Positions 1-21,500 of a stretch of DNA of 22,560 nucleotides are shown in pieces. The notes below the pieces were generated by a model. The model did not search any database, was not told the origin of the DNA, and worked only from the letters and a program-made list of their open reading frames with translations. How positions within the stretch are numbered: the stretch's first letter is position 1; each line of letters starts with the position of its first letter. A program made the position numbers and the translations under genes. The stretch is from positions 1 through 22,560 of the forward strand of contig JAWXBZ010000007.1 in NCBI GenBank assembly GCA_034440375.1, read 5' to 3'. The DNA comes from Candidatus Eiseniibacteriota bacterium. GTDB lineage: Bacteria; Eisenbacteria; RBG-16-71-46; JABDJR01; JAWXBZ01.

Positions 1-97
1 CAAGAAGGTCAGCCGGATGATGTTCATCGAAGGCGAAGTCACCGCAGGTCCCAACGACGGTGGTCGGACCGACGATCGGCCGGAGGACGGACGCTGA
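1..97 (+). CDS. 3' end of an upstream gene (partial), product unknown
   Basis: Frame 2 is open from the window edge (KKVSRMMFIEGEVTAGPNDGGRTDDRPEDGR) to TGA at 95-97, with GC3-rich codons. Confidence 0.5.
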   Translation, partial: KKVSRMMFIEGEVTAGPNDGGRTDDRPEDGR

Positions 98-182
98 ACT
101 GTCAACGGGAGGAACGAGGATTCATCGCCCGGTGAGGGTGACCCGAAAGGGTCAGGAGAGGCCTTCGCCAAAGCGATGTCGA

Positions 183-218
183 GGCGGGGTGACCCCACAA
201 GGGTCACCCCGCCGTTTT
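183..218 (+). terminator. Intrinsic-terminator-like hairpin
   Basis: Perfect 13-bp stem GGCGGGGTGACCC (183-195) / GGGTCACCCCGCC (201-213), loop CACAA, followed by GTTTT. Confidence 0.6.
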
Positions 219-301
219 GCCTGGCCGGGACGGACCGGTAGACTGATGGCTGTCACCCAAAGAAGTACAACCGCAGTTGGCAGACGCTGAGGGGGCTGTA
301 G

Positions 302-1264
302 GTGGACGGACAACCGCTCGATCTGCTCGAACTTGCCGGCTCCCGGAAGTTGGATCTCTACCGGCAGCTCTACACGATTCGACGGGTCGAGGAGAGTCTG
401 CTGGCCCTGTTTTCCCAGGGCCTGTTGTCCGGCACGGTGCATACCTGCATCGGTCAGGAAGCCTGCGGCGTCGGGGTGGTCAACGCCCTTGATCGAACCC
501 GGGATGTCATCTGGTCCAATCACCGCAGTCACGGCCACTTCCTTGCCTACTCCGACGACATGGAAGGCTTGCTGGCCGAGATCCTGGGCAAGTCAACCGG
601 TGTCTGCGGGGGGATTGGCGGATCGCAGCATCTTCACACCGGCGCGTTCTACTCGAACGGCGTGCTGGGAGGAACGATTCCCTGCGCGGTCGGCTCGGCC
701 TGGGCGGAAAAATTGCGGGGTACGGGAGCCATCGGCTGCGTATTCCTCGGGGATGGCGCCATGGCGGAGGGAGCGGTCTACGAGGGACTGAACATGGCCT
801 CGCTCTGGAACGTCCCCTTGCTGTTCGTGCTGGAGCACAACGGTCAGGCCCAGAGCACCCCGACGCGATACGAACATGTGGGTTCCTTCGAGGACCGCGT
901 TCGGTCATTTGACATCGAGGTTGAGACCTTGAATGCCGACGAGGTGATGGTCGTTCTCGGGGCCGCCACCCGGGCCGTGAAGCAGGTACGACGCCGCAAT
1001 CGCCCTCTCTTCCTGATCCTCCATACCCACCGACTCTGCGCGCACAGCAAGGGCGACGATCATCGGCCGGAAGAGGAGCTTCAGGAAATCCGTCGACTCC
1101 ACGACCCCGTGGCCAACTTCCGCCAACAGTTGATGGCACTCGACCCGTCCGCGGTGACGGCCAGTGAGGCGGCCCTCGAAACGAGGCTCCAGCAGGCGAT
1201 TGTAGCGGCCCAGGCTGCCCATCCGCGTGACTCCAACGACTTTTTCGCTGGCGAGCCCCGGTGA
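302..1264 (+). CDS. TPP-dependent 2-oxoacid/acetoin dehydrogenase E1 alpha subunit family
   Basis: Motifs GTVHTCIGQEA, NHRSHGH, TPP-binding GDGAMAEG...EHN and HSKGDD. GTG start with GAGGGG upstream. Confidence 0.93.
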   Translation: MDGQPLDLLELAGSRKLDLYRQLYTIRRVEESLLALFSQGLLSGTVHTCIGQEACGVGVVNALDRTRDVIWSNHRSHGHFLAYSDDMEGLLAEILGKSTGVCGGIGGSQHLHTGAFYSNGVLGGTIPCAVGSAWAEKLRGTGAIGCVFLGDGAMAEGAVYEGLNMASLWNVPLLFVLEHNGQAQSTPTRYEHVGSFEDRVRSFDIEVETLNADEVMVVLGAATRAVKQVRRRNRPLFLILHTHRLCAHSKGDDHRPEEELQEIRRLHDPVANFRQQLMALDPSAVTASEAALETRLQQAIVAAQAAHPRDSNDFFAGEPR

Positions 1265-2259
1265 CTACCTACCTCGCGAGCCTGCAGCGGGGCATAAGGG
1301 AACTGCTCAAAGGGGATGACCGGGTGTACATCCTGGGAGAAGACCTCCTCGATCCATATGGCGGCGCCTTCAAGGTCACGCTGGGCGCACAGGCGGCCTG
1401 GCCGGATCGGGTCATCACCACACCGATCAGCGAAGGCGGCCTGGTTGGCGTGGGCGTCGGTATGGCGCTGCGCGGACTGCGCCCCATCGTGGAGATCATG
1501 TTCGGCGATTTCATGACGCTGGCCGCGGATTCAATCATCAACTACGGGGCCAAGTTGCCGGCCATGTTTGACTGGCGAGTCGATGTCCCGCTGGTCGTCC
1601 GAACCCCGGTGGGGGGACGTCGGGGCTACGGTCCGACCCACAGCCAGTGCCTGGAGAAGCTGTTCTTTGGGGTGCCGCACCTGGTCATCGTGTCCCCGTC
1701 GATCTACGACGACCCCGGTGATGCCTTGACCAGGGCGGTCACGAAGACGCGGGGCGTTGTCCTGTTCATCGAGCACAAGTCGCTCTACGAAGAGCCGCTC
1801 GTGAACGATGGTGCGGCAGGGCTCAGCATCGAGAAGCAAGGGCGATACCCGTATGCAACAGCCGTGGTGCGCAACTATGTCGGGGGTGCACCGGATGTCG
1901 CCGTCATTGCCTACGGCGGTACCAGCCTGATGGTGCACGCCCTGATGTCCCGGTTCGCCGACGACGAAATTCGCGTTGTCGCCTGCTTCCCGACACAGGT
2001 TCAGCCGCTGGCCATCGACGATATCCTGCCGGTGGCGGCCGAGGCCCGAAGGGTCGTGGTGGTCGAAGAAGGAACGAAGAGCTTTGGCTGGGGCGCCGAA
2101 GTGGCCGCCACGCTCCAGGACCGGCTCTGGGGGATTCTGGAAAGACCGGTGTGCCGGGTCGCCGCGCGCGATACGATCATACCGGCGGCACGAAGCCTTG
2201 AAGATTCCGTTCTGCCATCCCTCGACGACATTGAACGATCGGTACACGGGCTGCTATGA
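1261..2259 (+). CDS. TPP-dependent dehydrogenase E1 beta subunit family
   Basis: Motifs GEDL...GGAFKVT, TPISEGG, EIMFGDF, YGPTHSQ and VVVEE. GTGA overlap with the E1 alpha stop. Confidence 0.93.
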   Translation: MTTYLASLQRGIRELLKGDDRVYILGEDLLDPYGGAFKVTLGAQAAWPDRVITTPISEGGLVGVGVGMALRGLRPIVEIMFGDFMTLAADSIINYGAKLPAMFDWRVDVPLVVRTPVGGRRGYGPTHSQCLEKLFFGVPHLVIVSPSIYDDPGDALTRAVTKTRGVVLFIEHKSLYEEPLVNDGAAGLSIEKQGRYPYATAVVRNYVGGAPDVAVIAYGGTSLMVHALMSRFADDEIRVVACFPTQVQPLAIDDILPVAAEARRVVVVEEGTKSFGWGAEVAATLQDRLWGILERPVCRVAARDTIIPAARSLEDSVLPSLDDIERSVHGLL

Positions 2260-3386
2260 CGACGTTCATCCGGGCCCCGATGGTCAATCTCAACAGCGAG
2301 GTCATGCGACTTGTCGTCTGGACCAGGACGTCCGGCACGCGTGTCGGCAAGGGTGAGATCATCGGTCTCCTGGAGACATCCAAGTCGACATTCGACCTGC
2401 AGGTGGAGGATGAAGGGTTCCTGTATTTCCGGGTTGATGCGGGAGCCGAGATTCGGGTCGGTGAAACACTCGCGGCCCTGACCGAACGGGAGAATCAGCC
2501 AATCGACTGGCCGAAGACATCCCCCGACGATGACAGGATCGAGGCCGGAGATGGACAGCGACGCTGGACAAAGAAGGCCGAGCTCCTGGCGCTCCGCGGC
2601 AACATCGACATCGAGGCGGTCACGCGGGGTAAAGGCGATGGACCGGTCACCGAGAGCGAGATTCGGGCCCTGATGGACACCCGTGCCCGGTCAACCGCGG
2701 ATGCCCGGGATGTCGTGGACGACATCTACCCCACGGGTCGCCAGCAGCGGATCCTGGTGGCGGGCGCGGGCGACGGCGCCTCGCTGGTTCTCGACATCAT
2801 CGCGCGAACGCCACACCAGCGTGGCGTTGCCATGCTGGATGACGATCCCCGCTGGCACGGTCGCGCCCGGATGGGCGTTTCGGTCGTGGGACGCCTGGCC
2901 GATCTCGAGAGGCTCTGGAAGGACGGTTCCTTCGATGCGGTCGTCTGTTCCGTGAGTACCATCATCCCGTTTCGCGTCAAGGTGCGCGAGATGTGCGGGA
3001 CGCTGGGAATTCCGATGGCATCGGTCATTGATCCGACGGTGAGTGTCTGCACCAACGTCCAGATCGGCGCCGGCAACGTCATTCTCGGATTCGCGCGGCT
3101 GGGCCCCACCTCGGTCATCGGTCGGAATAACTTCATCGGCGCCTACACCAACATCGAGCACCACGCGATGGTCGGAGACGACAACACCTTCGGACCCGGC
3201 GTCATGCTCTCGGGTTTCGCCTCGATCGGCCATCGCATCCGGTTCGGAACGGGCATCTTCATCGAGCCAAAGGTGCAGATCGGCGACGACGCCATCGTGG
3301 CCTCTGGCGCCATCCTGACGATGAATGTGCCGCCGGGATCGCTGGTCCGGACTCGCTCAACCATTTCCATTCAGCCACGAAGCTGA
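2256..3386 (+). CDS. Fusion: lipoyl domain + E3/peripheral-subunit-binding-like domain + PglD/NeuD-family hexapeptide (left-handed beta-helix) acyltransferase
   Basis: Lipoyl motif VGKGEIIGLLETSKSTFDL (Lys43). PSBD-like TKKAELLALRGNIDIEAVTRGKGDGPVTESEI. PglD_N-like ILVAGAGDGA...LDDD. Hexapeptide repeats with NIEHH. ATGA overlap with E1 beta. Confidence 0.85.
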   Translation: MTTFIRAPMVNLNSEVMRLVVWTRTSGTRVGKGEIIGLLETSKSTFDLQVEDEGFLYFRVDAGAEIRVGETLAALTERENQPIDWPKTSPDDDRIEAGDGQRRWTKKAELLALRGNIDIEAVTRGKGDGPVTESEIRALMDTRARSTADARDVVDDIYPTGRQQRILVAGAGDGASLVLDIIARTPHQRGVAMLDDDPRWHGRARMGVSVVGRLADLERLWKDGSFDAVVCSVSTIIPFRVKVREMCGTLGIPMASVIDPTVSVCTNVQIGAGNVILGFARLGPTSVIGRNNFIGAYTNIEHHAMVGDDNTFGPGVMLSGFASIGHRIRFGTGIFIEPKVQIGDDAIVASGAILTMNVPPGSLVRTRSTISIQPRS

Positions 3387-3392
3387 AGACCC

Positions 3393-6188
3393 TCAAGGGC
3401 GATCGAGCGCCTCGAGAAGATTTCGTTCCACGACGGGAAGTTCGTGGATCGACTGCCAGGTGGCCATCTTAGGCCTGTAAAGGTAGGCCGGCGGCGCGTT
3501 CTCCCGGAGGCGGGCCTGTATCGGGGCGACGGCTCGTGTCGCGGCCGCCGCATCGCCGGTGGCCTTCAAGGCGTGGGCCTCGATAATCCAGGCCAGATCG
3601 CACCAGTCTCCCCAGGTGCGAGCCCGTTGAGCATGCTCCAGCGCTTCCCCGGGCCGTCCGGCAGCCAGGGCGGCCCAGCCACGCAACGCCTCGGCGATCG
3701 GGTTCTCGGCTTCCAGGAGCTGTGCTTCGTCGAGATGTGTCAGGGCGTGGTCGAGCCGGCCGGCGCGGATCAAGTCGCGCGCGACATCGCAACGGAGTGA
3801 CACGACGCCGGTGCGCAGCCGGACCGCCTGTTCATAGAGTGGAAAGGCCTGATCCCACCGTTCGGCCAGTGCCAGCGAGGCGGCCTTGCCCCATAACCCC
3901 TCCGGGCTGTCCGATTGATAGGTCAGCAGGGCGTCGTAGGCCGCCAGCGCGTCATCGACCTGACCCAGATTCCAGGAATAGCTGCCAATGGCCCCGTCGA
4001 CCAGATAGCGATCCTCCTCCTTGACGGCTGCCCGTGCTTCCTTCAACTCGTGGAGGACCTCCGTCAGCGGCCGGCCGGAGCGCCAGAAGGCATCCGCAGC
4101 CGTCGTGCGCACCGAGCCGCTGCCGGGATACATCTGAATGGCTCGTGTCGCCAGCTCGCCGGCCGTGACCCGATCGCCCTTCAGGGCTCGGGCCCCAACC
4201 AGGGCGGTCAACGCTGTCTCCTCGTTCGGGGAGCGATGCAGCGCCTTCTCGAAGAAGACGACGCCGGCATCGACATACCCTTTTCCAACCCGGTCCTGAC
4301 CCGCATTCACATAGGCGATGGGGTAGTTCGGTTCAACATCGGCCAGGGCCATGAAGTGCCGGACCCGGGCCATCAGGTCGGGATCCATTGTCTCGAGCCG
4401 CTCGTAGACTTCCTCGCGACTGTCGAAAACGTCACGTTTTTTCGACTGGAGCGCGTTGGCTCCTTCGGCGAAGTACTCATATACGGACCCGCCGGCGTAA
4501 CGGCTGAGAAAGCCGTTCTTCGTCAAGTCGTCGCGCTCCTTGGCCTGGCGATACAGCTCCTGTATCTCGCGACTCTGATCGGCTGTCATGACGCCGTGCA
4601 CCTGGTGCGTCAGTTCGTGGAGTACCGTGTTGTAGCGGTCGAAGATCGTCCGCTCGACGTCCTCGATGCCGGTTACCGTGTTGTAGCCGCCGGCACCCCG
4701 TACATCGTCCCAGAGGCGGCTGTCATAGCTGATCCGCTGGTCGCGCAGAGTTTCCAGGCCGGGCGTTTCGGATAGAAGCTGGTGGAGGGGCTTCACGTAG
4801 TGCGTGCAACCGCCATCGAGAAGTACCGGCAGAAAGTTCTTCCACGGTTCGACCGACAGCGCCACCCGCTTCTGGTGACGCGGCGACAGGCTCTTCCAGT
4901 TGGCCACGTAGCGCTCGATGCCGGGAAGGACCGGCATGGGCGACGCGTCGAAGCGTGCCTCGTAGTCCCTACGATGCACATCGATGTCGAACCGTTGGAA
5001 TTCGAGCGCCTTGGCCAGTGTGGCGTGGGCCCGGCCATATTCGGGGCAAAGGCGCAATGCCTCGAAACACGCGTCGCGTGCGGCGACGTATTGCCCTTCC
5101 TCGAACTCGTAACTGGCGATCCGGACCCGGATGTCTGCCCAGTCCGGGTGCGTTCGGAGAATTGATTCATATGCTGCGCGGGCTTCGCGGCGCTTGCCGT
5201 CTGCCAGCAGGCGGTCGGCATCGGCCATCAATTTCCGCCCGGACTCATCGGCGAACTTGCCCGGGAAGGCCACTGCCAGCTCGGTATAGTTTTTTCTGGC
5301 ATAACCGTTGCCAAGGTAGTAGTGGCTCGCGTCGTGGTAGCGGTTTAACTTGACCGCCCACTCGGCGGCGGTAATGGCTTCGTCGGTCCGTCCAAGCCGG
5401 ATGAGCGTTTCAGAAGAGGCCATCAGAACGTCCGGCGTGGCCATATCCGACATGGCTTTCTCGTGAAACGCGAGAGCGCCGTCAAAGTCACGTCGACGAA
5501 ACTGCACCTGACCCAACCCGCGCCGCGCGGCCGCACGAAAGACGACATTTTCATCCGACTGGCCGGCCCGATCGAGTGCCCGAACGTAGCAGGACTCGGC
5601 GCGGTCAAAGTTCAGCATCTGGTAGGACAGCCGGCCGGCGGCCAGAAGGTCGGGCATTCCGGCGTCGGTGTCCCGGGCCAGCGAGATGCCACGCGTGCGT
5701 TTTGCCACTTCGGGCGTGTTGTCGGCAGCGAAGAGCCAGGCGTAGACAAGATCCCGCTCGTCGTCGGACAGCATGCGGCGCTCATGCATCAGGGGTGTCG
5801 TGAGTCGCCCGGCGAGTTCGAAGTCCTGGCGAAGAATCGCCACGCGCGCGGCGAGGATCGTCCAATCGGGCGTGGAGTGCTCGATGCGGGCCAGTCGCTC
5901 GGACGCTTCGTCCAACCGCCCGGTGGCGATCATCGCCCGAACCGGGTCGAGGCTGGCCGTTTTGCTGTCCGACCCGTCAGACGATCGGGCGAGCCGTTCT
6001 TCGAACCGTGCCTGTTGAGCCTTGAGCGGCGCAAAATAATCGGGCGACGTGGAACCGGCCGGGTCAGCGGCAGAGGCGGCGGGAGTCATCGGCAGGAGTG
6101 TCATCATCACAAGCATCAAAGCGATCGGTGCCGCTCCCCGGGCGGCGACGGTGCGCGACGGAGCCGCTGGGGCGATGAATGTCATCAT
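3393..6188 (-). CDS. Exported TPR-repeat protein with a central HEXXH zinc-peptidase-like domain
   Basis: Signal-peptide-like N-terminus (ALMLVMMTLLPMTPAASAA), many TPR-like helices, and LHELTHQVH followed by YEYFAEG. Confidence 0.8.
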   Translation of the reverse strand: MMTFIAPAAPSRTVAARGAAPIALMLVMMTLLPMTPAASAADPAGSTSPDYFAPLKAQQARFEERLARSSDGSDSKTASLDPVRAMIATGRLDEASERLARIEHSTPDWTILAARVAILRQDFELAGRLTTPLMHERRMLSDDERDLVYAWLFAADNTPEVAKRTRGISLARDTDAGMPDLLAAGRLSYQMLNFDRAESCYVRALDRAGQSDENVVFRAAARRGLGQVQFRRRDFDGALAFHEKAMSDMATPDVLMASSETLIRLGRTDEAITAAEWAVKLNRYHDASHYYLGNGYARKNYTELAVAFPGKFADESGRKLMADADRLLADGKRREARAAYESILRTHPDWADIRVRIASYEFEEGQYVAARDACFEALRLCPEYGRAHATLAKALEFQRFDIDVHRRDYEARFDASPMPVLPGIERYVANWKSLSPRHQKRVALSVEPWKNFLPVLLDGGCTHYVKPLHQLLSETPGLETLRDQRISYDSRLWDDVRGAGGYNTVTGIEDVERTIFDRYNTVLHELTHQVHGVMTADQSREIQELYRQAKERDDLTKNGFLSRYAGGSVYEYFAEGANALQSKKRDVFDSREEVYERLETMDPDLMARVRHFMALADVEPNYPIAYVNAGQDRVGKGYVDAGVVFFEKALHRSPNEETALTALVGARALKGDRVTAGELATRAIQMYPGSGSVRTTAADAFWRSGRPLTEVLHELKEARAAVKEEDRYLVDGAIGSYSWNLGQVDDALAAYDALLTYQSDSPEGLWGKAASLALAERWDQAFPLYEQAVRLRTGVVSLRCDVARDLIRAGRLDHALTHLDEAQLLEAENPIAEALRGWAALAAGRPGEALEHAQRARTWGDWCDLAWIIEAHALKATGDAAAATRAVAPIQARLRENAPPAYLYRPKMATWQSIHELPVVERNLLEALDRP

Positions 6189-6194
6189 CGAGGC

Positions 6195-6204
6195 AGGTTA
6201 CCAT
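6195..6204. promoter_or_regulatory. Overlapping divergent -10-like hexamers (candidate leaderless promoters)
   Basis: TACCAT (+, 6199-6204) is 7 nt before ATG 6212. TAACCT (-, 6200-6195) is 6 nt before ATG 6188. No SD sequence is evident in the 23-nt gap. Confidence 0.45.
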
Positions 6205-6211
6205 AGCCCAC

Positions 6212-7033
6212 ATGGAGGACAGCTGCGCCCTGATCACCACTCACTATGCCGCCAGTGCGGAGGGATACCGCGACTGGTGGGCGCCGGTACTGGACCATCT
6301 GGCGGGACCGACACTGGACGCGCTGCCGATTCCACCGGGGGCGCCGCGGCTTCTTGACCTTGGCTGCGGCACCGGCCTCGCGAGTCGGCGGCTGGCTCCG
6401 CGACTTCCCGGGAATGCCCGCCTCGTGGCCGGTGACCTGGTTTTGGCCATGCTGGTTCAGGCGCGGCAACTGGCTCCGAGCATCCCCGTCGTGCGATTCG
6501 ATGCGGTGCGGCTTCCGTTTCCGGATTGCCGGTTTGATCTGGTCGTCTGCACGTTCGCCCTGCATCACATCCGCGAGCAACGCCGCACGCTGGGCGAGAT
6601 TTATCGAATCCTGAAACCGGGTGGACGGCTCCAGCTCGTCACCTGGGGCGCCGACGATCCCGGCTGCCCGGCCATGACGGCCTGGGACGACCTCCTGATG
6701 GAGATGGGCGGGCCGGCCGAGGATCCGAAGGCACCCACCGTCTGGCACGAGGAGATAGGCAGACCGGCGGCGCTGAAAGCCATGCTGACCACGCTCGGCT
6801 TCCGCTCCGTGTCGGTGACTCTGTCAGCCGGAGTCCACGACTTTACGCCGGAAACGCTGGCCGGGGTTCGACTCGGCGTAGGCGCGGGACGGCGTCGATT
6901 CCTGGCCCTCTCGTCATCCTCGCGCGAACGCTTCGAATCCAGGGCCCGCGAGCTGCTGGCCGGGCTCGCCGCCGCCGACTTTGTCTGGCGCCCGGACATC
7001 GTCACCGCCCAGGTCGTCAAACCGGCCAGGTGA
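6212..7033 (+). CDS. Class I SAM-dependent methyltransferase (UbiE-like)
   Basis: Motif I LLDLGCGTG, then DAVRLPFPDCRFDLVVC and EIYRILKPGG. Start moved to ATG 6212 to avoid overlap with the divergent gene. Confidence 0.88.
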   Translation: MEDSCALITTHYAASAEGYRDWWAPVLDHLAGPTLDALPIPPGAPRLLDLGCGTGLASRRLAPRLPGNARLVAGDLVLAMLVQARQLAPSIPVVRFDAVRLPFPDCRFDLVVCTFALHHIREQRRTLGEIYRILKPGGRLQLVTWGADDPGCPAMTAWDDLLMEMGGPAEDPKAPTVWHEEIGRPAALKAMLTTLGFRSVSVTLSAGVHDFTPETLAGVRLGVGAGRRRFLALSSSSRERFESRARELLAGLAAADFVWRPDIVTAQVVKPAR

Positions 7034-7175
7034 ACGGGGGTCGGGCCGGCCAGGTCGCCATCCGATGACCTCCGCACGACATGCCCGAATTGTGGCGCCG
7101 GGATGACGGACCGCGGTTGTAAAACCCGCTGCTCGCGGCGCCACTCTTCCACCGATTGCCCTGAATCCCTGGTAG
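7030..7175 (+). pseudogene. Probable decayed small CPxCG zinc-finger protein gene
   Basis: Reads TCPNCGAGMTDRGCKTRCSRRHSSTDCP with no in-frame start upstream of CPNCG. The GTG at 7030 is out of frame, and removing one A near 7164 restores a ...DCPDPW-stop ending. Confidence 0.5.
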
Positions 7176-7239
7176 CCGACGCGGCAGGTCGGGCGTAAGA
7201 TTTCGGCTCACACCCCTCAACATTGGAAAGGATGGGACC

Positions 7240-8028
7240 ATGGCAGAATGCAGCGAACACTCCCCCGGCACCTTTTGCTGGGTGGATCTGGCCACGACGG
7301 ATCGCGCGGCGGCCCGGAAGTTTTATGGCGAGCTCTTCGGCTGGACCTTCGAGGAGAATCCGGCCGGACCCGACATGACTTATACGATGGCGAAGCTCGG
7401 CAGCCATGACGTGGCCGGGCTGGCCGATCTTCAGGCGGAGCAGGCGTCTCAGGGGGTGCCACCTCATTGGATGTCGTACGTGGCAGTGGACGACGCGGCG
7501 GCCACCGCCGCGAAAGTGAAGTCGCTCGGCGGAATGGTTCTGATGGACGCATTCGATGTCATGGAGCATGGTCGAATGGCCGTCTTCATGGATCCCGATG
7601 GCGCCATGTTTTCCGTGTGGCAGCCGAAGAGCCACAAGGGGGCCGGCCGGCGTGACGAGCCCGGCACGCTGTGCTGGAACGAACTTGGCACGCGGAACAC
7701 CGACATCAACGGCGCCTTCTATACCAATTTGTTCGGTTGGGGTACCACGCCGATGACCGGTTCCGGCGACATGCCCTACACCATGTTCATGAAGGGCGAG
7801 ACGCCAATCGGCGGCATGTATGCCTTGACCGAAGCGATGAAGGATGTGCCGCCCCACTGGCTGCCTTACTTCGCCGTGGCCAGTGTCGACGACTCATTCG
7901 CGAAGGCGGGGAGACTGGGCGCCAAACCACTCATGCCGGGGACCGACATCCCGAACATGGGGCGCTTCGCCATTCTTCACGATCCGCAGGGCGCAGTCTT
8001 CGCGATTTTTCAGGGACTCAATCAGTAG
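7240..8028 (+). CDS. VOC/glyoxalase family protein with two domains (CFP32-like)
   Basis: Two repeats: PGTFCWVDL...FYGELFGW...PPHWMSY...GRMAVFMDPDGA and PGTLCWNEL...PPHWLPYF...GRFAILHDPQGA. Confidence 0.92.
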   Translation: MAECSEHSPGTFCWVDLATTDRAAARKFYGELFGWTFEENPAGPDMTYTMAKLGSHDVAGLADLQAEQASQGVPPHWMSYVAVDDAAATAAKVKSLGGMVLMDAFDVMEHGRMAVFMDPDGAMFSVWQPKSHKGAGRRDEPGTLCWNELGTRNTDINGAFYTNLFGWGTTPMTGSGDMPYTMFMKGETPIGGMYALTEAMKDVPPHWLPYFAVASVDDSFAKAGRLGAKPLMPGTDIPNMGRFAILHDPQGAVFAIFQGLNQ

Positions 8029-8035
8029 GCACGAC

Positions 8036-8070
8036 GCGGGCGGGCGGTTCCATCGGAGCCGGCCGCCCGC
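8036..8070. terminator. GC-rich hairpin between convergent genes
   Basis: GCGGGCGG...CCGCCCGC outer stem with inner CGGTTCC/GGAGCCG. It lies between the stops at 8028 and 8102 and has no clear U tract. Confidence 0.4.
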
Positions 8071-8101
8071 TGCAGTTCACTTTGTTGTCGCCACCGCACG
8101 T

Positions 8102-9010
8102 CTACCAGTCGATCGTGCCCTGCCCCAGGTAGACCACCGGTCCTCCGACCTTGACCGACGAGATGCCGTCGTAGGAATTTTCGATTTCGATTTCGATCTG
8201 GCTGGGGCGTCCCACCTCGTGACCCTGTTCATTGCTGATCCGGACGATGGGATCGCAAGGCACCAGCTTGTGGCGCACCAGATAGGCGCCAAGACAACCG
8301 GCGGCGCTGCCCGATGCTGGATCCTCGCCGGTATGGTCCGGCATGATCAGCCGGCCGTGGGTCGTTGACATCGGGTCGATCGTTTCGCGGGTAAAGAGAT
8401 AAAACATCTTGCTGCCGAACAGCTCCGCCGCCTGCCGCACCAGGTCCATCCGGGGCATGACGCGTCGCAGCGCTTTCAGCGAGCGAAGCGGCACCATGAT
8501 CTGCTTCAAGCCGGTCGACACCATCTGGATCGGCAAATCGGGCGTGGCGAAATCGGATTCGGGAATGCCCATCGCTTCCGGCAGCGGTCCCGGCTCGTGG
8601 ATCGGCTCGTAGAATACGGGCTCCGACTGAGTCATCACGACTTTGCTCACCTGCCCGGCCCGGACCATGAGATCGACGGGAAGGATCCCGGCCCCGATCT
8701 CCTGGAAGACCCGCGTCACCGGCTCACTCAGCTCATAGCGACCCAGCCGTGCCAATACGAAGTGTGTGCCAAGCGTTGGGTGGCCGGCCATCGGCAGTTC
8801 CTCGGCCACGGTGAAGATCCGGACGCGAACGTTGGCGCCAATGGCGCGGGCCCGCTGCACGAACGTCGACTCCGAAAGATTCATCTCCCTGGCCAGGCTC
8901 TGCATGATGTCGGTTGGCAGCCCCTCCGCGTCGGGAAAGACCGCCAGTGGATTGCCGCCAAATGGGCGCGTGGTGAAGACGTTGACGCGGTGATACGTGA
9001 TGGTCGGCAC
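8102..9010 (-). CDS. PhzF family phenazine-biosynthesis-like isomerase (DAP epimerase fold)
   Basis: Motifs VFTTRPFGGNPLAV, REMNLSESTF, ELPMAGHPT, EDPASGSAAG and QGHEVGRPS. Confidence 0.93.
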   Translation of the reverse strand: MPTITYHRVNVFTTRPFGGNPLAVFPDAEGLPTDIMQSLAREMNLSESTFVQRARAIGANVRVRIFTVAEELPMAGHPTLGTHFVLARLGRYELSEPVTRVFQEIGAGILPVDLMVRAGQVSKVVMTQSEPVFYEPIHEPGPLPEAMGIPESDFATPDLPIQMVSTGLKQIMVPLRSLKALRRVMPRMDLVRQAAELFGSKMFYLFTRETIDPMSTTHGRLIMPDHTGEDPASGSAAGCLGAYLVRHKLVPCDPIVRISNEQGHEVGRPSQIEIEIENSYDGISSVKVGGPVVYLGQGTIDW

Positions 9011-9016
9011 GGACGA

Positions 9017-9412
9017 TCAGGGCTTCCGGAAAAACTGGTCGACGAGCTGGCGCGCCTCATCCCAATCGGTTTCGCGCACGTAGACACGGGCCCGGGAGAG
9101 GGGCACCGGGAGCCGGTAGAGGTGACCAATGGGGTCCTCGTGAACGACACAACCGATTCCGCAATTCTGGAGAAATTCGCGGATCATGGCCGCCATTTCG
9201 GGCATTGGTTCCTCGATGAGGAGCTTGAGCGCCCCATCACTTTTATCCACAGGGGTTTCACCGACGGGCTCCACCAAGTCGTCCTCCTCGAAGTCGTCCA
9301 TGTCCGGCAGCGGCCCCTCCATTTCGAGGACTTCCAGCAGAACGACATCGCAGGCCGGACACCGTTCCGTGTCGTAGTCAAACCTCGATCGACAGCGCGG
9401 GCAGATCGGCAT
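9017..9412 (-). CDS. Zinc-ribbon + DUF2007-like (putative signal-transducing) protein
   Basis: CPRC...CPAC N-terminus, acidic linker, then AAMIREFLQNCGIGC...VYVRETDWDEARQLV. GGAG upstream. Confidence 0.7.
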   Translation of the reverse strand: MPICPRCRSRFDYDTERCPACDVVLLEVLEMEGPLPDMDDFEEDDLVEPVGETPVDKSDGALKLLIEEPMPEMAAMIREFLQNCGIGCVVHEDPIGHLYRLPVPLSRARVYVRETDWDEARQLVDQFFRKP

Positions 9413-9608
9413 CAGGTTGCACTCCGTTGTCCAGCAACACTATACCAGCTTGACCCCGGGTGGATCGACGCTGTCGTCACCTGACCCGAATCCGGTGGCA
9501 TCCGGTCAATGGCGTACCACGGAACTGAACCGGAAAGGCCAGGGTGCCGATAACCGTAGTGGATGCGGGCGTCATCAGGCAAAATCGGTCCGGGAGGACG
9601 AAAATCCA

Positions 9609-10814
9609 GTGAATCGCAGGGGATTTGGATTCGTGATCGGGCTTCTCCTGACCCTTGGCTCGGAGGCCCGGGCCGATCGAATGGTTCGGGTGGCCGTAGC
9701 GGCCGACGACGCCTACCGTGCCCGCACGGGGTGGCAGGAACGGGCCGAGGCGGCACTTGTCGAGGCCGGGACGGCCTTCGGCGATTTCGGGATCACCTTC
9801 AAGATTGTCGAATTCCTGGACTGGGAGTCCGAATCTGCCGACCATGATGTGGCCGCGCTTCAGAACGAGATGTCGGCCGAGGTGGTGAGCTCCCGCGCGG
9901 AACTGATCGTGGGCTTCGCCGGCGCAACCGGAGGGCGTGGGAACAGGCACTTCATCCGGTTGGGCCATTCCGATACGCCAGGCCGCCATCTTCTGGTATC
10001 CGAGCGGGCCGGGCGCGACCTTTCCCTTGTCCTGCGCCACGAACTCGGCCATGCCTTCGGTCTTCCGCACGTTTCCCACACCGTTTCGGTGATGAACGAA
10101 GGGGTCGAATCGGGGCGCACCCGGTTCGACACGCTGAGCGCCGCCATCCTGCGCAACAACGCCCGGCTGGAGTTCCTGTCCGGCGATCCGCTGGCCGGGT
10201 GCAGCCTCGGTTCACTTTGGGGCCTTTACGATCAGGTGGCTTCCAACGGCGACGAGGTCGCCGATCTCATTGCCGTCATCGGCGACAGTTACCGCCGTCG
10301 CGGAGATCCGGAATCCTCGCGCCGGGCCTACGCGGAGGCCGAGCAGATCAGTCCCGGCTTGCGGTCGGCGCGGCTGGGCCTGGCCATGCTGGCACTGGCC
10401 GATGAACGCCCTTCCGAAGCGATCTCACTTCTAGAATCGCTCCGGAAGGAGGGCGCTGATGATGTCCCCGGCCTGGAAACGAGCCTTGGCTTGGCCTATG
10501 CCCAGCTCGGGCTCACCGCCAGCGCTGTCCGGGCCTACGAGACGGCCATCCGGCAGAATCCGGATGATTTCGCGGCGCTGAACAACCTCGGGCTTCTGCA
10601 CCTGGACGACGGCCGGCATCACGACGCAGAAATGCTTTTCCAGCAGGCCCTGGCCGTGCGGCCGCGATTTGCCCTGGCCTGGAACAACTACGGTGCCCTG
10701 CTCTACAAGACCGGTCGCCAGGACGAGGCGATCAAGGCCTTCCAAACCTCACTTGACCTCGAGCCGGACCAGTCGGGCGCGGACAACCTTCGTCAGCTCG
10801 TCGATCGCCGCTAG
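9609..10814 (+). CDS. Exported metzincin (matrixin-like) metalloprotease with C-terminal TPR repeats
   Basis: HELGHAFGLPH (10038-10070), Met-turn SVMN, TPRs such as ALNNLGLL and AWNNYGALL. A signal-peptide-like stretch follows GTG 9609, with GGAGG upstream. Confidence 0.82.
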   Translation: MNRRGFGFVIGLLLTLGSEARADRMVRVAVAADDAYRARTGWQERAEAALVEAGTAFGDFGITFKIVEFLDWESESADHDVAALQNEMSAEVVSSRAELIVGFAGATGGRGNRHFIRLGHSDTPGRHLLVSERAGRDLSLVLRHELGHAFGLPHVSHTVSVMNEGVESGRTRFDTLSAAILRNNARLEFLSGDPLAGCSLGSLWGLYDQVASNGDEVADLIAVIGDSYRRRGDPESSRRAYAEAEQISPGLRSARLGLAMLALADERPSEAISLLESLRKEGADDVPGLETSLGLAYAQLGLTASAVRAYETAIRQNPDDFAALNNLGLLHLDDGRHHDAEMLFQQALAVRPRFALAWNNYGALLYKTGRQDEAIKAFQTSLDLEPDQSGADNLRQLVDRR

Positions 10815-10885
10815 TCGGAATCGGCCCATCCTGATAGCCTGCTTGATGTTCCGTCCATTCCGTCGACTCCATCCGTCATGAGGCC

Positions 10886-12784
10886 ATGACCCAGACGCGC
10901 ACGCACGATCAGAGTGGACCGCGGCCGGGCGACCTCCTCCGCGCCGGCATCGGCGGCGGCCTCATGGTCGGTCTTCTCCTCGGCCGATTGACGCTCGGCA
11001 TGAATCCCCATCTCGCGGAAGGCCTCCGTGATCCGCTGCTGCTCTTCCTCTACTTTGCGATCGGCTATGGATTGGTCGGCCTCGTGCTCGGCCTCCTGGG
11101 TGTTGTCCTTCTCGCGTTGATCGGTGTCATGGCCGGCCGGTCGTCCGCCACCACGGAGCGGCTCGGTACGGCGGGCGTGGCCGGCCTCCTGATCGGCCCC
11201 TTGATCTACTACGGCCTCCTGCCGGATGTCGGCCTGCAGCACGGATTCCTGTCGGGGTTGCTCTTCGGAGCCTCGAAACCACGGCTGCTGCTGTCGCTGG
11301 CCGGCCTGATCGTGGGCCTGTCCGTCATCGGGTGGCTGATCCGTCCGCTGGTTGCCGGCCTGGCGCGCTCGATGGGAATGACAAGCCGGCAACTTCTGAC
11401 TCGCGGGATGGTTCTGGCCGGGGCACTGATCGTGGCGATGACCCTGGCCTTCCCGCCGAAAGCGCCGACCCCCACAATCGCCGCTCCGGCTGCACTGGCC
11501 GACATCCCGCCACCGCCGGCCTCCCGCCCACCTCTGGTGCTCCTCTGCATCGATGGCGCCGACCTGGACGACATGATCCTTCCGATGACGGGCCGCGGTG
11601 AACTTCCAACGTTTGCCCGCCTGATGCGCGAGGGAACCTGGGGGGCGCTGGCAACCATCGAGCCGACGTTATCCGCGGTGGTCTGGACCACGATCATCAC
11701 CGGCAAGACGCCGGCGCAGCACGGCATCCGGCACTTCATCGTCTTCCGACTTCCGGGGATACGGAAGGCCATCCACCAGTTCCCGCGACATACCGGCCTC
11801 AACTTCCGGGTCTTCCCGATGCTGGAGAAACTGCCGGGGATGCCGTCGCTCCAGTCCCCGTACACGAGCAACATGCGCACGGCGGAGGCCCTCTGGAACA
11901 TCGTCGGGCGGTTCATGCCGGTGGGCGCCTATCGCTGGCTCGTCACCTGGCCGGTCGAGAAGCTGAACGGCTTCAACGTGGCCGGGGGTGTCGGCTGGCT
12001 TCAGATCATGGGTTCCTTCGAGAGCCAGGCCCATGACATGTTGCAACAAGGATTCCACTTTCCCGCCGATGTCTACACTGGCCTGCCGCCACCGCCCACG
12101 ATTCCCGATGTGACCCGATTGATGCTCGAGCCCTATGTCGGCGCTGGGCACGACGCTCCCGCCTCCGACTGGAAGGTCAAGGCAATCGCCGCCGCGTTGC
12201 GCGACCCGACCGGTCATTACCTGCCACGGCTGATGGAGAAGTATGACGCGCGCTTTGTGGCCGCCAGCTTTTATCCAGTCGACGAGTTCTGCCACTACTT
12301 CGCGGTTTACAAGGACAAGGGGGGAATTTTTTCGGGGGCGGTCGCCGAACGATACCGCGCCACCGACGCGCGGCTCGGCGAATTTCTCGACGCGATGGGC
12401 GATTCCGTCAACATCGTGATCGTATCCGATCACGGATATGACTTCGCCCAGAACCACCACACGAATGCACCGGCCGGCGTCCTCTTCGGCATCGGGCCGG
12501 ATTTTGCGAAGGGGCGGCGCCTCGACACGTTGAACGTTTACGACGTGGCGCCGCTCTGCCTGTCGCTGCTCGGCCTGCCCCTGGCCGATGACATGCCCGG
12601 AACGAGAGAGCCCCGGTTTGAGGCGGCACTTGACAGCGCTGGCGCGGGTGCCACCAGTCTCCGGCAGTCTCCCACCATAATCGCCACCTGGGAAACGGGC
12701 CTTCGCCACGCCGATGACCCGATCTCTAGCCCGATCGATGCGCAGATCAAGGAGCAGCTGCGGAGTCTGGGGTATATCAACTAG
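10886..12784 (+). CDS. Membrane-anchored alkaline phosphatase superfamily protein (type I phosphodiesterase/sulfatase-like)
   Basis: About 5 N-terminal TM segments, then IDGAD, PTLSAVVWTTIITGKTPAQHGI, VSDHG and the C-terminal QLRSLGYI. Confidence 0.85.
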   Translation: MTQTRTHDQSGPRPGDLLRAGIGGGLMVGLLLGRLTLGMNPHLAEGLRDPLLLFLYFAIGYGLVGLVLGLLGVVLLALIGVMAGRSSATTERLGTAGVAGLLIGPLIYYGLLPDVGLQHGFLSGLLFGASKPRLLLSLAGLIVGLSVIGWLIRPLVAGLARSMGMTSRQLLTRGMVLAGALIVAMTLAFPPKAPTPTIAAPAALADIPPPPASRPPLVLLCIDGADLDDMILPMTGRGELPTFARLMREGTWGALATIEPTLSAVVWTTIITGKTPAQHGIRHFIVFRLPGIRKAIHQFPRHTGLNFRVFPMLEKLPGMPSLQSPYTSNMRTAEALWNIVGRFMPVGAYRWLVTWPVEKLNGFNVAGGVGWLQIMGSFESQAHDMLQQGFHFPADVYTGLPPPPTIPDVTRLMLEPYVGAGHDAPASDWKVKAIAAALRDPTGHYLPRLMEKYDARFVAASFYPVDEFCHYFAVYKDKGGIFSGAVAERYRATDARLGEFLDAMGDSVNIVIVSDHGYDFAQNHHTNAPAGVLFGIGPDFAKGRRLDTLNVYDVAPLCLSLLGLPLADDMPGTREPRFEAALDSAGAGATSLRQSPTIIATWETGLRHADDPISSPIDAQIKEQLRSLGYIN

Positions 12785-12793
12785 ACGGTTGGC

Positions 12794-13618
12794 TCAGCCG
12801 GACGCCGACCCCAGGTAAGCCGCCACCCCCAACCCGATCGCCGCCAGCGTCACGACCACCGCCACCCAGGCAAGAGCCGTCCAGAGACGCTCGTCGCCGC
12901 GGCCGTTGCGGTCGCCCATCAGGAACGACAGGGCAATGCCGCTGACCAGGCCACCGAGGTGGGCGGCGTTGTCGGCCCGGATCAGGAGGCCGAAAAGGAG
13001 CGCGTACAACCCCCACTGGATCATGGAGCCGCGAATCATCTTGCCGAAGGCATCGCCACGGCGATGACCGTACAGGCCGGCCGCACCGATCAGGCCGAAC
13101 AGCGAGCCGGAGGCACCGATCGAAATGTTCGTGGGCGAGGTCCAGGCACCGAGCAGAAATCCGAGTGCGCCGGACAGGATGAAGATGAGGATGAAGCGTG
13201 GGCGGCCATAGGCCTGCTCCGCCAGCGGCCCCGCCTGGATCAGCGCCATCGAATTGAACAACAGGTGAAGAAAGTTGCCGTGCAGGAAGATCGGCACGAT
13301 CAGCCGCCACCACTCGCCAGCCAGGATACGGGGCGTCGAGCGGGCACCCATCTCGAATAGCAGGCCACCCGGCACGTTCATCAGTGCCGCCCACAACCCC
13401 TTGCCCCCGAGAGCACCCAGCGTGGCCACCATCTCGAGGACGAAGAAGAGGATGCAGATGCCGATCAGCCATCCAGTCACCATTCCGGGGTTGTCCGATG
13501 CCGACAGATGAACCTCGCGGACGCTTTTTCGGTCGGCGGCCGCGCCGCAATAGGGACAGAGTCGCTCAGTCGAATCGATCAGCGCCCGGCACGCCGGGCA
13601 TGGTTTAAGGCTGGACAT
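12794..13618 (-). CDS. Rhomboid intramembrane serine protease with N-terminal zinc ribbon
   Basis: WRL, HLLFNS, GASG (catalytic Ser) and AHLGG (catalytic His). N-terminal CPAC...CPYCG. Confidence 0.92.
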   Translation of the reverse strand: MSSLKPCPACRALIDSTERLCPYCGAAADRKSVREVHLSASDNPGMVTGWLIGICILFFVLEMVATLGALGGKGLWAALMNVPGGLLFEMGARSTPRILAGEWWRLIVPIFLHGNFLHLLFNSMALIQAGPLAEQAYGRPRFILIFILSGALGFLLGAWTSPTNISIGASGSLFGLIGAAGLYGHRRGDAFGKMIRGSMIQWGLYALLFGLLIRADNAAHLGGLVSGIALSFLMGDRNGRGDERLWTALAWVAVVVTLAAIGLGVAAYLGSASG

Positions 13619-13796
13619 CAGCCGACCATAACGCCGGGAGTCGTCGGCTCACAAGCGCCGGACGATGCGACCAGCGGGACGTCGGTCCTTTGATGCTGCC
13701 CCGTCGCATCCAACAGTTTGTCCGGGTACTATCCGCGCGGATGACGGTCGCGCGTTTCCGGGAGGATCGACAACCGGTCGGGGGCACGGGAGGATA

Positions 13797-14966
13797 ATGG
13801 TTCGGCAGATCGGGTTCCGGTTGGTCCTCCTGATGACCTCGCTGGCCATCGCCCTCCTGGCAGCCGAGTTCGCCCTCCGGCTGGCATTGCCGATTCCCGA
13901 CCCCTACGCGACCACCAAGGAAGGCCGGATAGCCGGGTTCGAAAACTCCTTCATCCGGTCGCAGTTTGCTCCCGACTACACGATGACAACCTTGCCGGAG
14001 CCGGGCCTGCCGGGCGTCTCGGGATCCAAGCGGTTCACGGTGAACAACTTCGGATATCGCGGTCCGACCCTCACGGTTCCAAAGCCAAAGGGCGAGCTTC
14101 GAATCTTCCTGGTCGGTGGCAGCTCGACGGAGTGTCTTTACCTGGACGATTCGGAATCCCTGGACGCCGTGCTGCAGCGGGAACTTCAGACGGACTCCGA
14201 TTGCACCGTTCGCGTTCATAACGCCGGAAAATCGGGTGATGCCAGCGATGATCATGTCTCGATGCTGGTTCACCGGATCGTCCACCTGGAGCCGGATCTC
14301 ATCATCGTTTTTGCCGGCTTGAACGATCTGGGTCGGGCCATCTACAACCACGACTATCTTCATCTGGATGCCGTGTCCCAGCCAAACCGCCCGTCACCAC
14401 TCCTGCTCCTGGCCTCTGAATTCCAGGTATTTCGCCGCATGTACTACACATTCAAGCGAGTGGCCCCCTCGGAAAAGGAAATTCTCGAAGGCGTCACGCA
14501 GACCACCAATTATCGAAAGAAGGTGGCCGTCCGCCAGTCGTATCCGATCACGGATGGCCCGCCCCGCGTCGACCACGATCCCTATGAAGCAAACCTGCGA
14601 ACGCTGGCCGGAGCGGCGCGCGCCAACGGTGCCCGGGTCGTCTTTCTGACCCAGCAAACCACCTGGAACAGCACGGTGGATCCGAAAGCGGAGGACTGGC
14701 ACTGGCTGACGTTGCTGAACGGCGTGCGCTATCGGGAGGACGAGCTCGATCGCGCCCTGGAGGGGTACAACGACGTCATGCGACGCGTGGCCACCCAGCT
14801 GGACGTGCCCCTGCTCGATCTCTCGGCGTCGCTCGTCAAGTCTCTCGACTTTTTCTACGACGATGTGCACTTCAATGTTCGTGGGGCACAACAGACGGCG
14901 CAGTCCCTCGCTCAAATGCTGCGCGATCGGGGCCTTTGCTCCTGCGTGAGCACTGAAGGCCGGTGA
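13797..14966 (+). CDS. Membrane-anchored SGNH/GDSL hydrolase family protein
   Basis: N-terminal TM ending AEFALR, and blocks GGSSTE, NAGKSG, GLND and DDVHFN. ATG 13797 follows GGGAGG. Confidence 0.85.
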   Translation: MVRQIGFRLVLLMTSLAIALLAAEFALRLALPIPDPYATTKEGRIAGFENSFIRSQFAPDYTMTTLPEPGLPGVSGSKRFTVNNFGYRGPTLTVPKPKGELRIFLVGGSSTECLYLDDSESLDAVLQRELQTDSDCTVRVHNAGKSGDASDDHVSMLVHRIVHLEPDLIIVFAGLNDLGRAIYNHDYLHLDAVSQPNRPSPLLLLASEFQVFRRMYYTFKRVAPSEKEILEGVTQTTNYRKKVAVRQSYPITDGPPRVDHDPYEANLRTLAGAARANGARVVFLTQQTTWNSTVDPKAEDWHWLTLLNGVRYREDELDRALEGYNDVMRRVATQLDVPLLDLSASLVKSLDFFYDDVHFNVRGAQQTAQSLAQMLRDRGLCSCVSTEGR

Positions 14967-14996
14967 GCGGAGAAACCGGCTGAGTCGTGCCGGTCG

Positions 14997-15254
14997 CTAG
15001 GGCTGCTCCTCGTAGTCCGCAAGGCGGATGCCGTGCTTCGCCATCGCCTCCTTCATCTGGTCTTTCAGATGCGCGGGCGTGGCCTTGACCAGACCGATCA
15101 CCATGGTGGCCATGTCCACCTGCGACACGCCGCGGGTCGCCGCCACCTTGGCCACTTCGTTCCGGCCCATCTTCTCGGCCAGCGGCCGCATGAAGACGGG
15201 AATCTCGCCTAACAGCACCTTGAACTTGTCACTGGCTTCCGGTGTCCACTCCAT
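14997..15254 (-). CDS. Small PCP_red/DUF2621-like protein
   Basis: Pattern MEWTPEA...IPVFMRPLA...KATPAH, with a strong AAGGAG SD. Confidence 0.7.
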   Translation of the reverse strand: MEWTPEASDKFKVLLGEIPVFMRPLAEKMGRNEVAKVAATRGVSQVDMATMVIGLVKATPAHLKDQMKEAMAKHGIRLADYEEQP

Positions 15255-15288
15255 CGTGCGCTCCTTCGTTTCACCATGTCGATCGTGA

Positions 15289-18873: not shown

Positions 18874-18933
18874 GGCGCAGGATTGTGGGGATGGCTGGAA
18901 AGGCGGGTCAAGGGGGCGTCCCCCCGGCGGAGG

Positions 18934-19065
18934 CAAATAAACGAGCCGCCGACGTTTTGCCTCGTCCCGTGGCCGCTCGGGTTCGAAGTGCGTCGACGGC
19001 TCCTACTCAGGGGGTGAGGGCTTTCGCCCTCGGTGTCACATGCACCAAGACATACACGTCCCCCG
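18934..19065 (-). other. Unassigned structured RNA element ending in a terminator-like stem
   Basis: On the minus strand: GAGGGC-GAAA-GCCCUC hairpin, then a 12-bp stem GAGCCGUCGACG/CGUCGGCGGCUC followed by GUUUAUUUG. Confidence 0.45.
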
Positions 19066-19075
19066 GGTGTCGGTT

Positions 19076-20202: not shown

Positions 20203-20288
20203 TGTTTGATGGCTCTCAGTCAGCAATCTCGACGGATCGAGGTGAATCCAGCCCGTCACGGACCGGAGCGGCCACCCGGAAGCCCGTG

Positions 20289-20294
20289 ATTATA
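20289..20294 (-). promoter_or_regulatory. -10 element for the leftward SRPBCC-mocA operon
   Basis: Perfect TATAAT on the minus strand within a GC-rich divergent intergenic region. Confidence 0.45.
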
Positions 20295-20476
20295 GGGCAT
20301 CCGGGGCAGCTCTCCGCCTTAGAAAATCGGCGGGTTTCGACCCGCCTTGAGTAAACTTTGGTCTCGGCGCCCTTTTCCCGGCCTCCCAAAGGCCTTAGAA
20401 TCGACCATTCCATGAAAATGACGCTGAGTTGGGCCACCGGGCAAGAGGACAGTCAGGGTGACCGTCGGGGGGGTCG

Positions 20477-21418: not shown

Positions 21419-21500
21419 CGCCTTTGGCACCCGCTCCTGTAACTCCCGGGCCAGGCCGGCATCTGATTGATGGGCCACAACACTGAGGGGAGAACTGACC

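Follow-up and report, generated by a model that had tools for sequence, protein, structure and literature searches.

The window analysed here, a stretch of 22,560 bp, is the entire contig C7 (JAWXBZ010000007.1) of a Candidatus Eiseniibacteriota genome that is 93.7% complete and consists of 264 contigs. It carries a three-gene module that is apparently an undescribed, widespread and uncharacterised variant of the 2-oxoacid dehydrogenase design. The genes of a putative E1 component precede the gene of a fusion protein in which a lipoyl domain and a peripheral subunit-binding domain (PSBD) are joined to a PglD_N domain and a left-handed beta-helix acyltransferase. The reading that we favour, and consider on balance probable, is that E1 loads the lipoyl arm, that the PglD/PerB-like domain passes the acyl group directly to a nucleotide amino sugar, and that the housekeeping E3 of the cell reoxidises the arm.

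All three genes lie on the forward strand. The E1 alpha gene (302-1264, 320 aa) and the E1 beta gene (1261-2259, 332 aa) both start with GTG, and the fusion gene (2256-3386, 376 aa) starts with ATG. The stop of the E1 alpha gene and the start of the E1 beta gene overlap in GTGA (1261-1264), and the stop of the E1 beta gene and the start of the fusion gene overlap in ATGA (2256-2259). The open reading frames (ORFs) and both overlaps were read from the sequence and agree with the initial annotation, which had described three genes coupled in this manner; the module genes are translationally coupled.

Domain architecture of the fusion protein

The lipoyl domain comprises residues 1-85 (2256-2510) and contains an ETSK motif, the Lys43 of which is encoded by AAG at 2382-2384. 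Biotin_lipoyl matched 21 of 21 aligned relatives scanned singly (best 1.7e-12), and the NCBIfam model of the acetoin dehydrogenase E2 matched residues 3-166 of the fusion (5.9e-07). An AlphaFold model built from alignment A1 reached a pLDDT of 86.7, with low confidence only at residues 89-101 and 145-160, the linkers on both sides of the PSBD. In a Foldseek comparison, the N terminus of the fusion superposed on the lipoyl domain 3crk_C of pyruvate dehydrogenase (PDH) with a TM of 0.84 and an rmsd of 1.2 over 80 columns. Residue conservation was counted in the 176 full-length sequences (340-420 aa) among 193 proteins. Lys43 is kept in 175 of these 176 and, in one alignment, in 45 of 45. The exception, P0120, still matches Biotin_lipoyl (1.3e-11) and hence probably reflects an alignment offset. 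Lys43, Lys107-Ala108 (within TKKAE), Glu133 and His302 are invariant in the 21 homologues of A1, and Glu40, Ala108 and the PSBD pattern are conserved among the relatives. A biotinyl domain was considered in place of a lipoyl domain and rejected on the ETSK/ETxKA motif, the context of E1 and PSBD, and the fold; motifs of the ETSK/ETxKA type tell lipoyl from biotinyl domains.

The PSBD occupies residues ~102-145 (2559-2690, TKKAE...VTESEI), with helices at 106-114, 119-125 and 133-146 in the AlphaFold model. Pfam E3_binding matched none of the 21 aligned relatives, and in a pairwise BLASTP of the fusion against the genome's own E2 the lipoyl motif region alone was aligned (E 0.022), not the PSBD. 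A profile search was therefore made with residues 101-148 of 31 relatives (A2) against the PDB. Its best match was the PSBD of a PDH E2 (1w4i, 8.6e-09), and the best 21 matches (E<=0.0034) consisted of 20 E2 PSBDs and one alpha/beta-hydrolase entry. Both the lipoyl-lysine domain and the PSBD of 2-oxoacid dehydrogenase complexes are thereby recognisable in the fusion.

The C-terminal half begins with a Rossmann-like PglD_N domain (residues ~164-250, 2745-3005), the nucleotide-sugar-binding half of PglD-class enzymes. It is followed by a left-handed beta-helix (3006-3386) with hexapeptide repeats and the motif E301-H302-H303, in which His302 is encoded at 3159-3161. The Pfam model Hexapep matched the fusion with 3.3e-16, PglD_N matched 10 of the 21 aligned relatives (best 9.8e-09), and the NCBIfam model NeuD/PglB/VioB (TIGR03570) matched residues 166-364 with 1.2e-33. 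Sequence matches of the fusion in the PDB include PglB-ATD, PerB, VioB, WeeI and PglD. The C-terminal half superposed in Foldseek on PerB (target TM 0.88) and on the acetyltransferase domain of Neisseria PglB (TM 0.90, rmsd 1.6), and the comparison with PglD gave TM values of 0.83-0.89. The two-domain fold, a Rossmann-like N domain followed by a left-handed beta-helix, is that of 4eaa, 4m98 and 2vhe (target TM 0.83-0.90). His302, which is kept in 176 of 176 full-length relatives, stands opposite a histidine of PerB in our reading of the PerB alignment. Entries of the PerB mutants H141N and H141A top the fold search, and we infer that the histidine facing His302 is H141. The catalytic part of the fusion is accordingly best described as a predicted PglD-class amino-sugar N-acyltransferase, a label that reflects both its sequence and its modelled fold. 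The E2 core (PF00198, DHRxxDG) had no Pfam match in the fusion.

The domain reading of the initial annotation, a lipoyl domain with an ETSK lysine and a PSBD-like segment followed by PglD_N, hexapeptide repeats and EHH in place of the E2 core, is borne out by the Biotin_lipoyl matches of the relatives, the 3crk_C fold and the PSBD profile on the one side, and by TIGR03570, Hexapep, the fold matches and the absence of PF00198 on the other.

The E1 subunits

E1 alpha matched the Pfam family E1_dh (PF00676) with 1.8e-48. Its best curated NCBIfam model was TIGR03182 (PDH_E1_alph_y) with 226 bits, under the cut-off of 394 bits, and its nearest solved structure was the human PDH E1 alpha (8.9e-40). 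E1 beta matched Transket_pyr (PF02779, 4.4e-28) and Transketolase_C (PF02780, 1.1e-16), and its nearest matches in the PDB were the PDH E1 beta entries 1ik6 and 1w85_B. The 47 E1 alphas of the module that were compared all retain GDG150-152, N180, H74-R75, H77 and H248-S-K-x-D-D. We take H248-S-K-x-D-D to be the histidine loop that in PDH E1 alpha serves the reductive acylation of lipoamide. With the GDG...N motif for thiamine diphosphate (ThDP) and the pyrimidine-binding and C-terminal domains all present, as in the E1 of a 2-oxoacid dehydrogenase complex, these sequence features identify the first two genes as putative E1 alpha and E1 beta of a heterotetrameric, ThDP-binding 2-oxoacid dehydrogenase.

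The E1 is nearest to pyruvate/acetoin-type E1s. Its closest E1 alpha homologues carry generic names (pyruvate/acetoin dehydrogenase alpha), and the identity of the acyl group is not deducible from them for this reason. In a quick maximum-likelihood tree, 67 E1 betas of the module split from three other E1 betas of the window's genome with an SH-aLRT of 100, which, the outgroup being so small, shows only that the module E1 did not arise by recent copying of a housekeeping one.

Distribution and authenticity of the module

A word-indexed protein search returned 59 proteins. The best 47 homologues had E<=4.4e-48, with a query coverage of 89% or more in 46 of them. In a full HMM search, 1124 of 1.84 billion representatives scored E<=1e-30, and the family comprises hundreds of 50%-identity clusters. 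Genome scanning found 114 relatives, 80 of which were kept and underlie all locus counts given below. The 80 loci span the Chloroflexota, Acidobacteriota, Actinomycetota, Armatimonadota, Bacteroidota, Pseudomonadota, Bacillota, Planctomycetota and others, and cultured carriers include Chryseobacterium hispalense DSM 25574, Acanthopleuribacter pedis KCTC 12899 and Actinoplanes cyaneus NBRC 14990. Since several cultured strains carry the module genes, the module is directly testable.

A 1109-bp contig from another study (runs X7 and X8) spans positions 1954-3062 with 21 differences from the window and crosses the junction of E1 beta and fusion as well as all internal domain boundaries up to the helix. 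Within the fusion, 13 differences are synonymous and three non-synonymous, and all eight differences in the lipoyl domain are synonymous. Judged by these sequence comparisons, the fusion gene is real and under selection. An assembly chimera, which the initial annotation had named beforehand as a finding that would overturn it, is ruled out by the full-length homologues, the genomic relatives in many phyla and the junction-bridging contigs from other studies.

Some proteins in the search were arranged differently. P0188 (865 aa) was matched in four stretches and contains repeated hexapeptide and PglD_N matches and no lipoyl domain; it is possibly composed of four tandem PglD-like units. In P0186 (320 aa) the lipoyl domain is linked to PglD_N by a short linker, and the protein may be devoid of a PSBD. 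P0056 and P0059 (~525 aa) combine a lipoyl domain with hexapeptide repeats in another arrangement. Longer fused forms (659-2000 aa) did not appear in the search, an absence that carries little weight.

Linkage to E1 and supply of lipoate and E3

Among the 65 loci with at least 2150 nt of upstream sequence, tblastn with the window's E1 subunits located E1 alpha and E1 beta immediately upstream of the fusion, and in its orientation, in 61; the other 15 of the 80 loci had too little flank. A strict script gave 59, to which L077 and L080 were added, where E1 is fused and more divergent and 68-74 nt separate the end of its beta part from the match. About ten loci encode both E1 subunits in one fused protein of 650-720 aa (e.g. 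682 aa). The pairing of E1 with the fusion that was proposed for the window is evidently a property of the family.

No E3 gene was found in the window, in agreement with the initial annotation, nor in the 80 related loci. The only match to Pyr_redox_dim in the genome lies on contig C130 and represents its single E3 candidate. Contig C205 holds a canonical E1-E2 operon, an LplA/B-type ligase and LipA, as well as the genome's only match to PF00198, and the only PF03099 match of the genome is a biotin ligase. Homologues of the genome's E3, LplA/B-type ligase, LipA and E2 core were absent from the 80 loci. An LplA-B_cat gene was present in 50 of 50 carrier genomes tested, which says little because 12 of 14 named control genomes have one too.

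Sugar genes in the neighbourhood

The ORFs of the 80 loci were clustered, the clusters were named by Pfam and the families were counted by tblastn. DegT aminotransferases were found in 36 of the 80 loci, Gfo/Idh/MocA oxidoreductases in 29, SDR dehydratases/epimerases in 25, Bac_transf phosphoglycosyl transferases in 19, UDP-sugar dehydrogenases in 12 and NTP_transferases in seven. One or more of the six classes is present in 53 loci. When the count is confined to the 51 loci of at least 15 kb, DegT is present in 31 and at least one sugar class in 41; a search of the neighbourhoods for NDP-sugar aminotransferase genes, suggested from the window alone, was hence rewarded. The nearest relatives of the window's module, L003 and L004, have Gfo/Idh/MocA and Bac_transf next door.

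A group of Caldilineae-type loci (L020, L025, L027, L029-L032, L035 and L036) has a fused E1, and an aldo-keto reductase, a Fumble-like gene (pantothenate-kinase fold) and a small ORF precede the module. No sugar genes were found within 10 kb in these loci, and their acceptor may differ for this reason.

Elsewhere in the window's genome there are two DegT loci, one on contig C151 with a GNAT gene and one on contig C47 with UDP-sugar dehydrogenase, SDR, DegT and SDR genes, the latter with no acyltransferase in view. A polysaccharide locus on contig C62 (1-8306, L092) has a truncated hexapeptide transferase as its first gene, at the end of the contig, followed by Gfo/Idh/MocA, Bac_transf, a radical SAM/SPASM protein, two GT4 glycosyltransferases and a flippase. 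Its Gfo/Idh/MocA and Bac_transf genes are homologues of those flanking the module in L003 and L004. Joining C7 to C62 was considered and found unsupported: a search for end overlaps of 15-141 nt between C7 and the other contigs was negative, and the 31-aa tail of an ORF at the start of C7 is unmatched.

Proposed mechanism and alternative explanations

According to the proposed mechanism, the ThDP-containing E1 alpha-beta would decarboxylate a small 2-oxoacid. Pyruvate, yielding acetyl, is the simplest guess, and hydroxypyruvate, glyoxylate, 2-oxobutyrate or a ketose are alternative donors. Docked via the PSBD, E1 would reductively acylate the presumably lipoylated Lys43 of the fusion, and the acyl-dihydrolipoyl arm would swing to the groove for the acyl donor in the PglD/PerB-like beta-helix, which is presumably trimeric. 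An amino sugar linked to a nucleotide would be held there by PglD_N and activated at its amino group by His302, and an N-acyl sugar would be formed with no involvement of CoA. The reduced arm would be reoxidised by the single housekeeping E3 of the cell, which could use the same PSBD.

A working arm, as opposed to a relic, is favoured by the tight gene linkage and by the almost complete conservation of lipoyl lysine, PSBD and catalytic E1 motifs. A sugar acceptor is suggested by the full PglD/PerB-like fold with its nucleotide-binding half, by the catalytic histidine and by the DegT, dehydratase and oxidoreductase neighbours. LpxA and LpxD are also among the PDB matches of the fusion; they use acyl-ACP and provide a precedent for protein-tethered acyl donors on beta-helix enzymes. 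A dedicated machine would be easier to understand if its acyl group were one for which the cell keeps no CoA pool. We tentatively propose that lipoate serves here as a biosynthetic glycan acyl carrier with direct, CoA-free transfer to a nucleotide amino sugar, and that the acyl group may be other than acetyl (glycolyl, formyl or propionyl, with no CoA pool).

Several observations weigh against direct transfer to a sugar. No sugar-pathway genes were found by the window scan in the 19 kb downstream of the module, and the contig ends only 301 nt upstream of it. Ten of the 51 long loci, mostly of the Caldilineae group, lack all six sugar classes, and four of the 65 loci with sufficient flank (L009, L033, L047 and L052) have unrelated genes upstream and no adjacent E1. 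In the window copy, Biotin_lipoyl (0.0061) and PglD_N (0.0014) both score below the Pfam cut-off, and TIGR03570 reaches 116.4 bits, below the curated cut-off of 160.8. A prediction of the complex of three copies of the beta-helix part with the lipoyl domain scored 0.00, controls not having been run, and speaks neither for nor against the mechanism. Why such a machine should be built merely to add acetyl is unexplained, and the part of the beta-helix that corresponds to the CoA-binding site of PglD-class enzymes shows no visible shortening or change. The dedicated glycan-acylation machine postulated in the initial annotation is thus supported in part: the architecture, the conserved residues, the E1 linkage and the sugar genes of the relatives speak for it, and the lack of an adjoining sugar gene in the window and in the ten long loci speaks against it.

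With no visible change in this region, the use of acyl-CoA, and likewise a CoA shuttle, is compatible with the sequence. In such a shuttle the arm would give its acyl group to CoA in the beta-helix groove, which would substitute for the E2 core, and the acyl-CoA would be released or used at once on a sugar. Structures of PglD-class enzymes with bound CoA or acetyl-CoA, as stated in the titles of 4ea7, 4m99 and 3bsy, the end-to-end alignment of the fusion domain with these enzymes, with no obvious loss, and weak CoA_binding-type Pfam matches in three of 21 relatives are in line with it. We nevertheless regard a shuttle as unlikely. The arm and CoA would compete for a single donor groove, and the conserved PglD_N half and the sugar-gene context point to a sugar end product and not to acyl-CoA; a sugar end product requires no E2-type catalytic domain. 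Little credence is given to a division of labour in which E1 adds a C2 branch from pyruvate to a keto sugar, the beta-helix N-acetylates from acetyl-CoA and the lipoyl-PSBD part is a mere tether for E1. Genes for dehydratases, which make keto sugars, are common near the module, and for the paulomycin, avilamycin and kosinostatin pathways the proposal has been made that C2 branches of NDP-4-keto sugars are attached by lipoyl-free pairs resembling E1 alpha/beta, such as Plm8/Plm9 and AviB1/AviB2 (PMC4802897). A tether, however, would need neither the lipoyl lysine nor the H248-S-K of E1 alpha, which are conserved in 175 of 176 relatives and in 47 of 47 module E1 alphas, respectively, and the translational coupling of all three genes also disfavours separate tasks.

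The sugar-free loci raise the question of the acceptor. Another amine or hydroxyl, on a small metabolite or on a lipid-linked or protein-linked group, might be acylated in the window's genome and in the Caldilineae-type loci; the window has no sugar gene, and in the latter loci the aldo-keto reductase and Fumble-like kinase stand beside the fused E1. We consider this quite improbable, for the entire C-terminal half including PglD_N superposes on PerB and PglB-ATD, Gfo/Idh/MocA and Bac_transf adjoin the module in L003 and L004, its nearest relatives, and the window's genome has amino-sugar loci on C47, C151 and C62. Direct transfer from the lipoyl arm to a nucleotide amino sugar remains the preferred reading.

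Other features of the window

In the window the module is an operon of three genes that stands alone at the contig end, and no sugar genes adjoin it. Upstream of it lies a 31-codon ORF tail (2-94, forward strand, KKVSRMMFIEGEV...), which is cut by the contig start and has no match in the related loci. Between this tail and the start of E1 alpha is a terminator-like hairpin (183-213, forward strand) with a 13-bp stem containing 11 G-C pairs, followed by GTTTTGCC. It is the sole such site in positions 1-3700 and forms the upstream boundary of the module. Because shuffled sequences average 2.1 sites, it is rated as a consensus match only. A 3983-bp contig of run X4 is identical to the window at positions 1-2392 and runs ~1.6 kb past the window's first base, so that the upstream neighbours are present in public data. 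An Rfam search of the window gave zero matches.

Downstream, a convergent gene ends 6 nt past the fusion stop. It encodes a large tetratricopeptide repeat (TPR) protein (3393-6188, reverse strand) with weak matches to zinc metallopeptidases (Peptidase_Mx1, Reprolysin_5 and Peptidase_M10), as does a second one (9417-10814, forward); a third TPR protein is encoded at 15289-17055 (reverse). Otherwise the region from 6179 to 22445 contains ordinary-looking genes. On the forward strand these encode a methyltransferase (6179-7033), a glyoxalase-fold protein (7240-8028), a type I phosphodiesterase (10886-12784), a GDSL lipase (13665-14966) and TerC (20477-21418), and on the reverse strand a PhzF-like protein (8102-9010), a rhomboid (12794-13618), a GcvT-like aminomethyltransferase (17812-18936) and a MobA-like NTP transferase (19076-19678).

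Comparison with known systems

To our knowledge, lipoyl arms are known from about five central-metabolism complexes and one natural-product cassette, and all those known to us pass their acyl group to CoA, ACP or a folate-type acceptor via E2-type or H-protein chemistry. If the proposed mechanism is true, the module would extend both the classes of acceptor and the catalytic partners known for lipoate. Lipoate would thereby have a new role, and bacteria of many phyla would have a new way to make unusual N-acyl sugars. The module would explain N-acyl groups on the surface sugars of some bacteria independently of acyl-CoA pools, and glycoengineers would gain a module that turns 2-oxoacids into sugar decorations. 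A full-text search of the literature for lipoyl together with PglD, NeuD, hexapeptide or O-antigen, whose coverage leaves out most subscription journals, retrieved no account of the fusion. PMC4875605 was rejected as a precedent, as 'lipoyl' there denotes an unrelated fatty-acyl decoration.

The 2-oxoacid dehydrogenase complexes (Geobacillus and mitochondrial PDH, branched-chain 2-oxoacid dehydrogenase (BCKDH) and acetoin dehydrogenase) share with the module the ThDP motifs of E1, the lipoyl lysine, a PSBD after a flexible linker and the gene order E1 alpha, E1 beta, lipoyl protein. In contrast, the module has an unrelated beta-helix sugar acyltransferase where the E2 core (PF00198) stands, its loci lack an E3 gene, and its presumed acceptor is a sugar amine and not CoA. 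With PglD, PglB-ATD, PerB, VioB and WeeI (TIGR03570) it shares the fold, the catalytic histidine and the DegT and dehydratase neighbours. The known enzymes of this class, however, are ~190-220 aa in size and use acetyl-CoA as donor; they are separate proteins except in PglB, where the domain is joined to a glycosyltransferase. The module adds an N-terminal lipoyl domain, a PSBD and its own E1, and a carrier domain is not known from the other enzymes of the class.

In Plm8/Plm9 and AviB1/AviB2, as in the module, E1 alpha/beta homologues are recruited to the tailoring of nucleotide sugars. According to PMC4802897, these lipoyl-free pairs are proposed to act on a keto sugar by forming a C-C bond, whereas the module has a conserved lipoyl carrier and a putative N-acyltransferase. 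The nearest functional precedent of the module is found in QncN/QncL/QncM and SclQ1-4 from Streptomyces. PMC6335953 describes a ThDP enzyme resembling PDH and transketolase that charges a lipoyl domain with a glycolyl C2 unit for biosynthesis and not for energy metabolism; an E2-type acyltransferase joined to this domain delivers the unit to an acyl carrier protein, which supplies a nonribosomal peptide synthetase. SclQ2 (305 aa) and SclQ3 (338 aa; PMC6335953) are similar in size to the E1 subunits of the module. Unlike the Qnc and Scl systems as described there, the module has a beta-helix transferase, a sugar-gene context and no E2-type domain.

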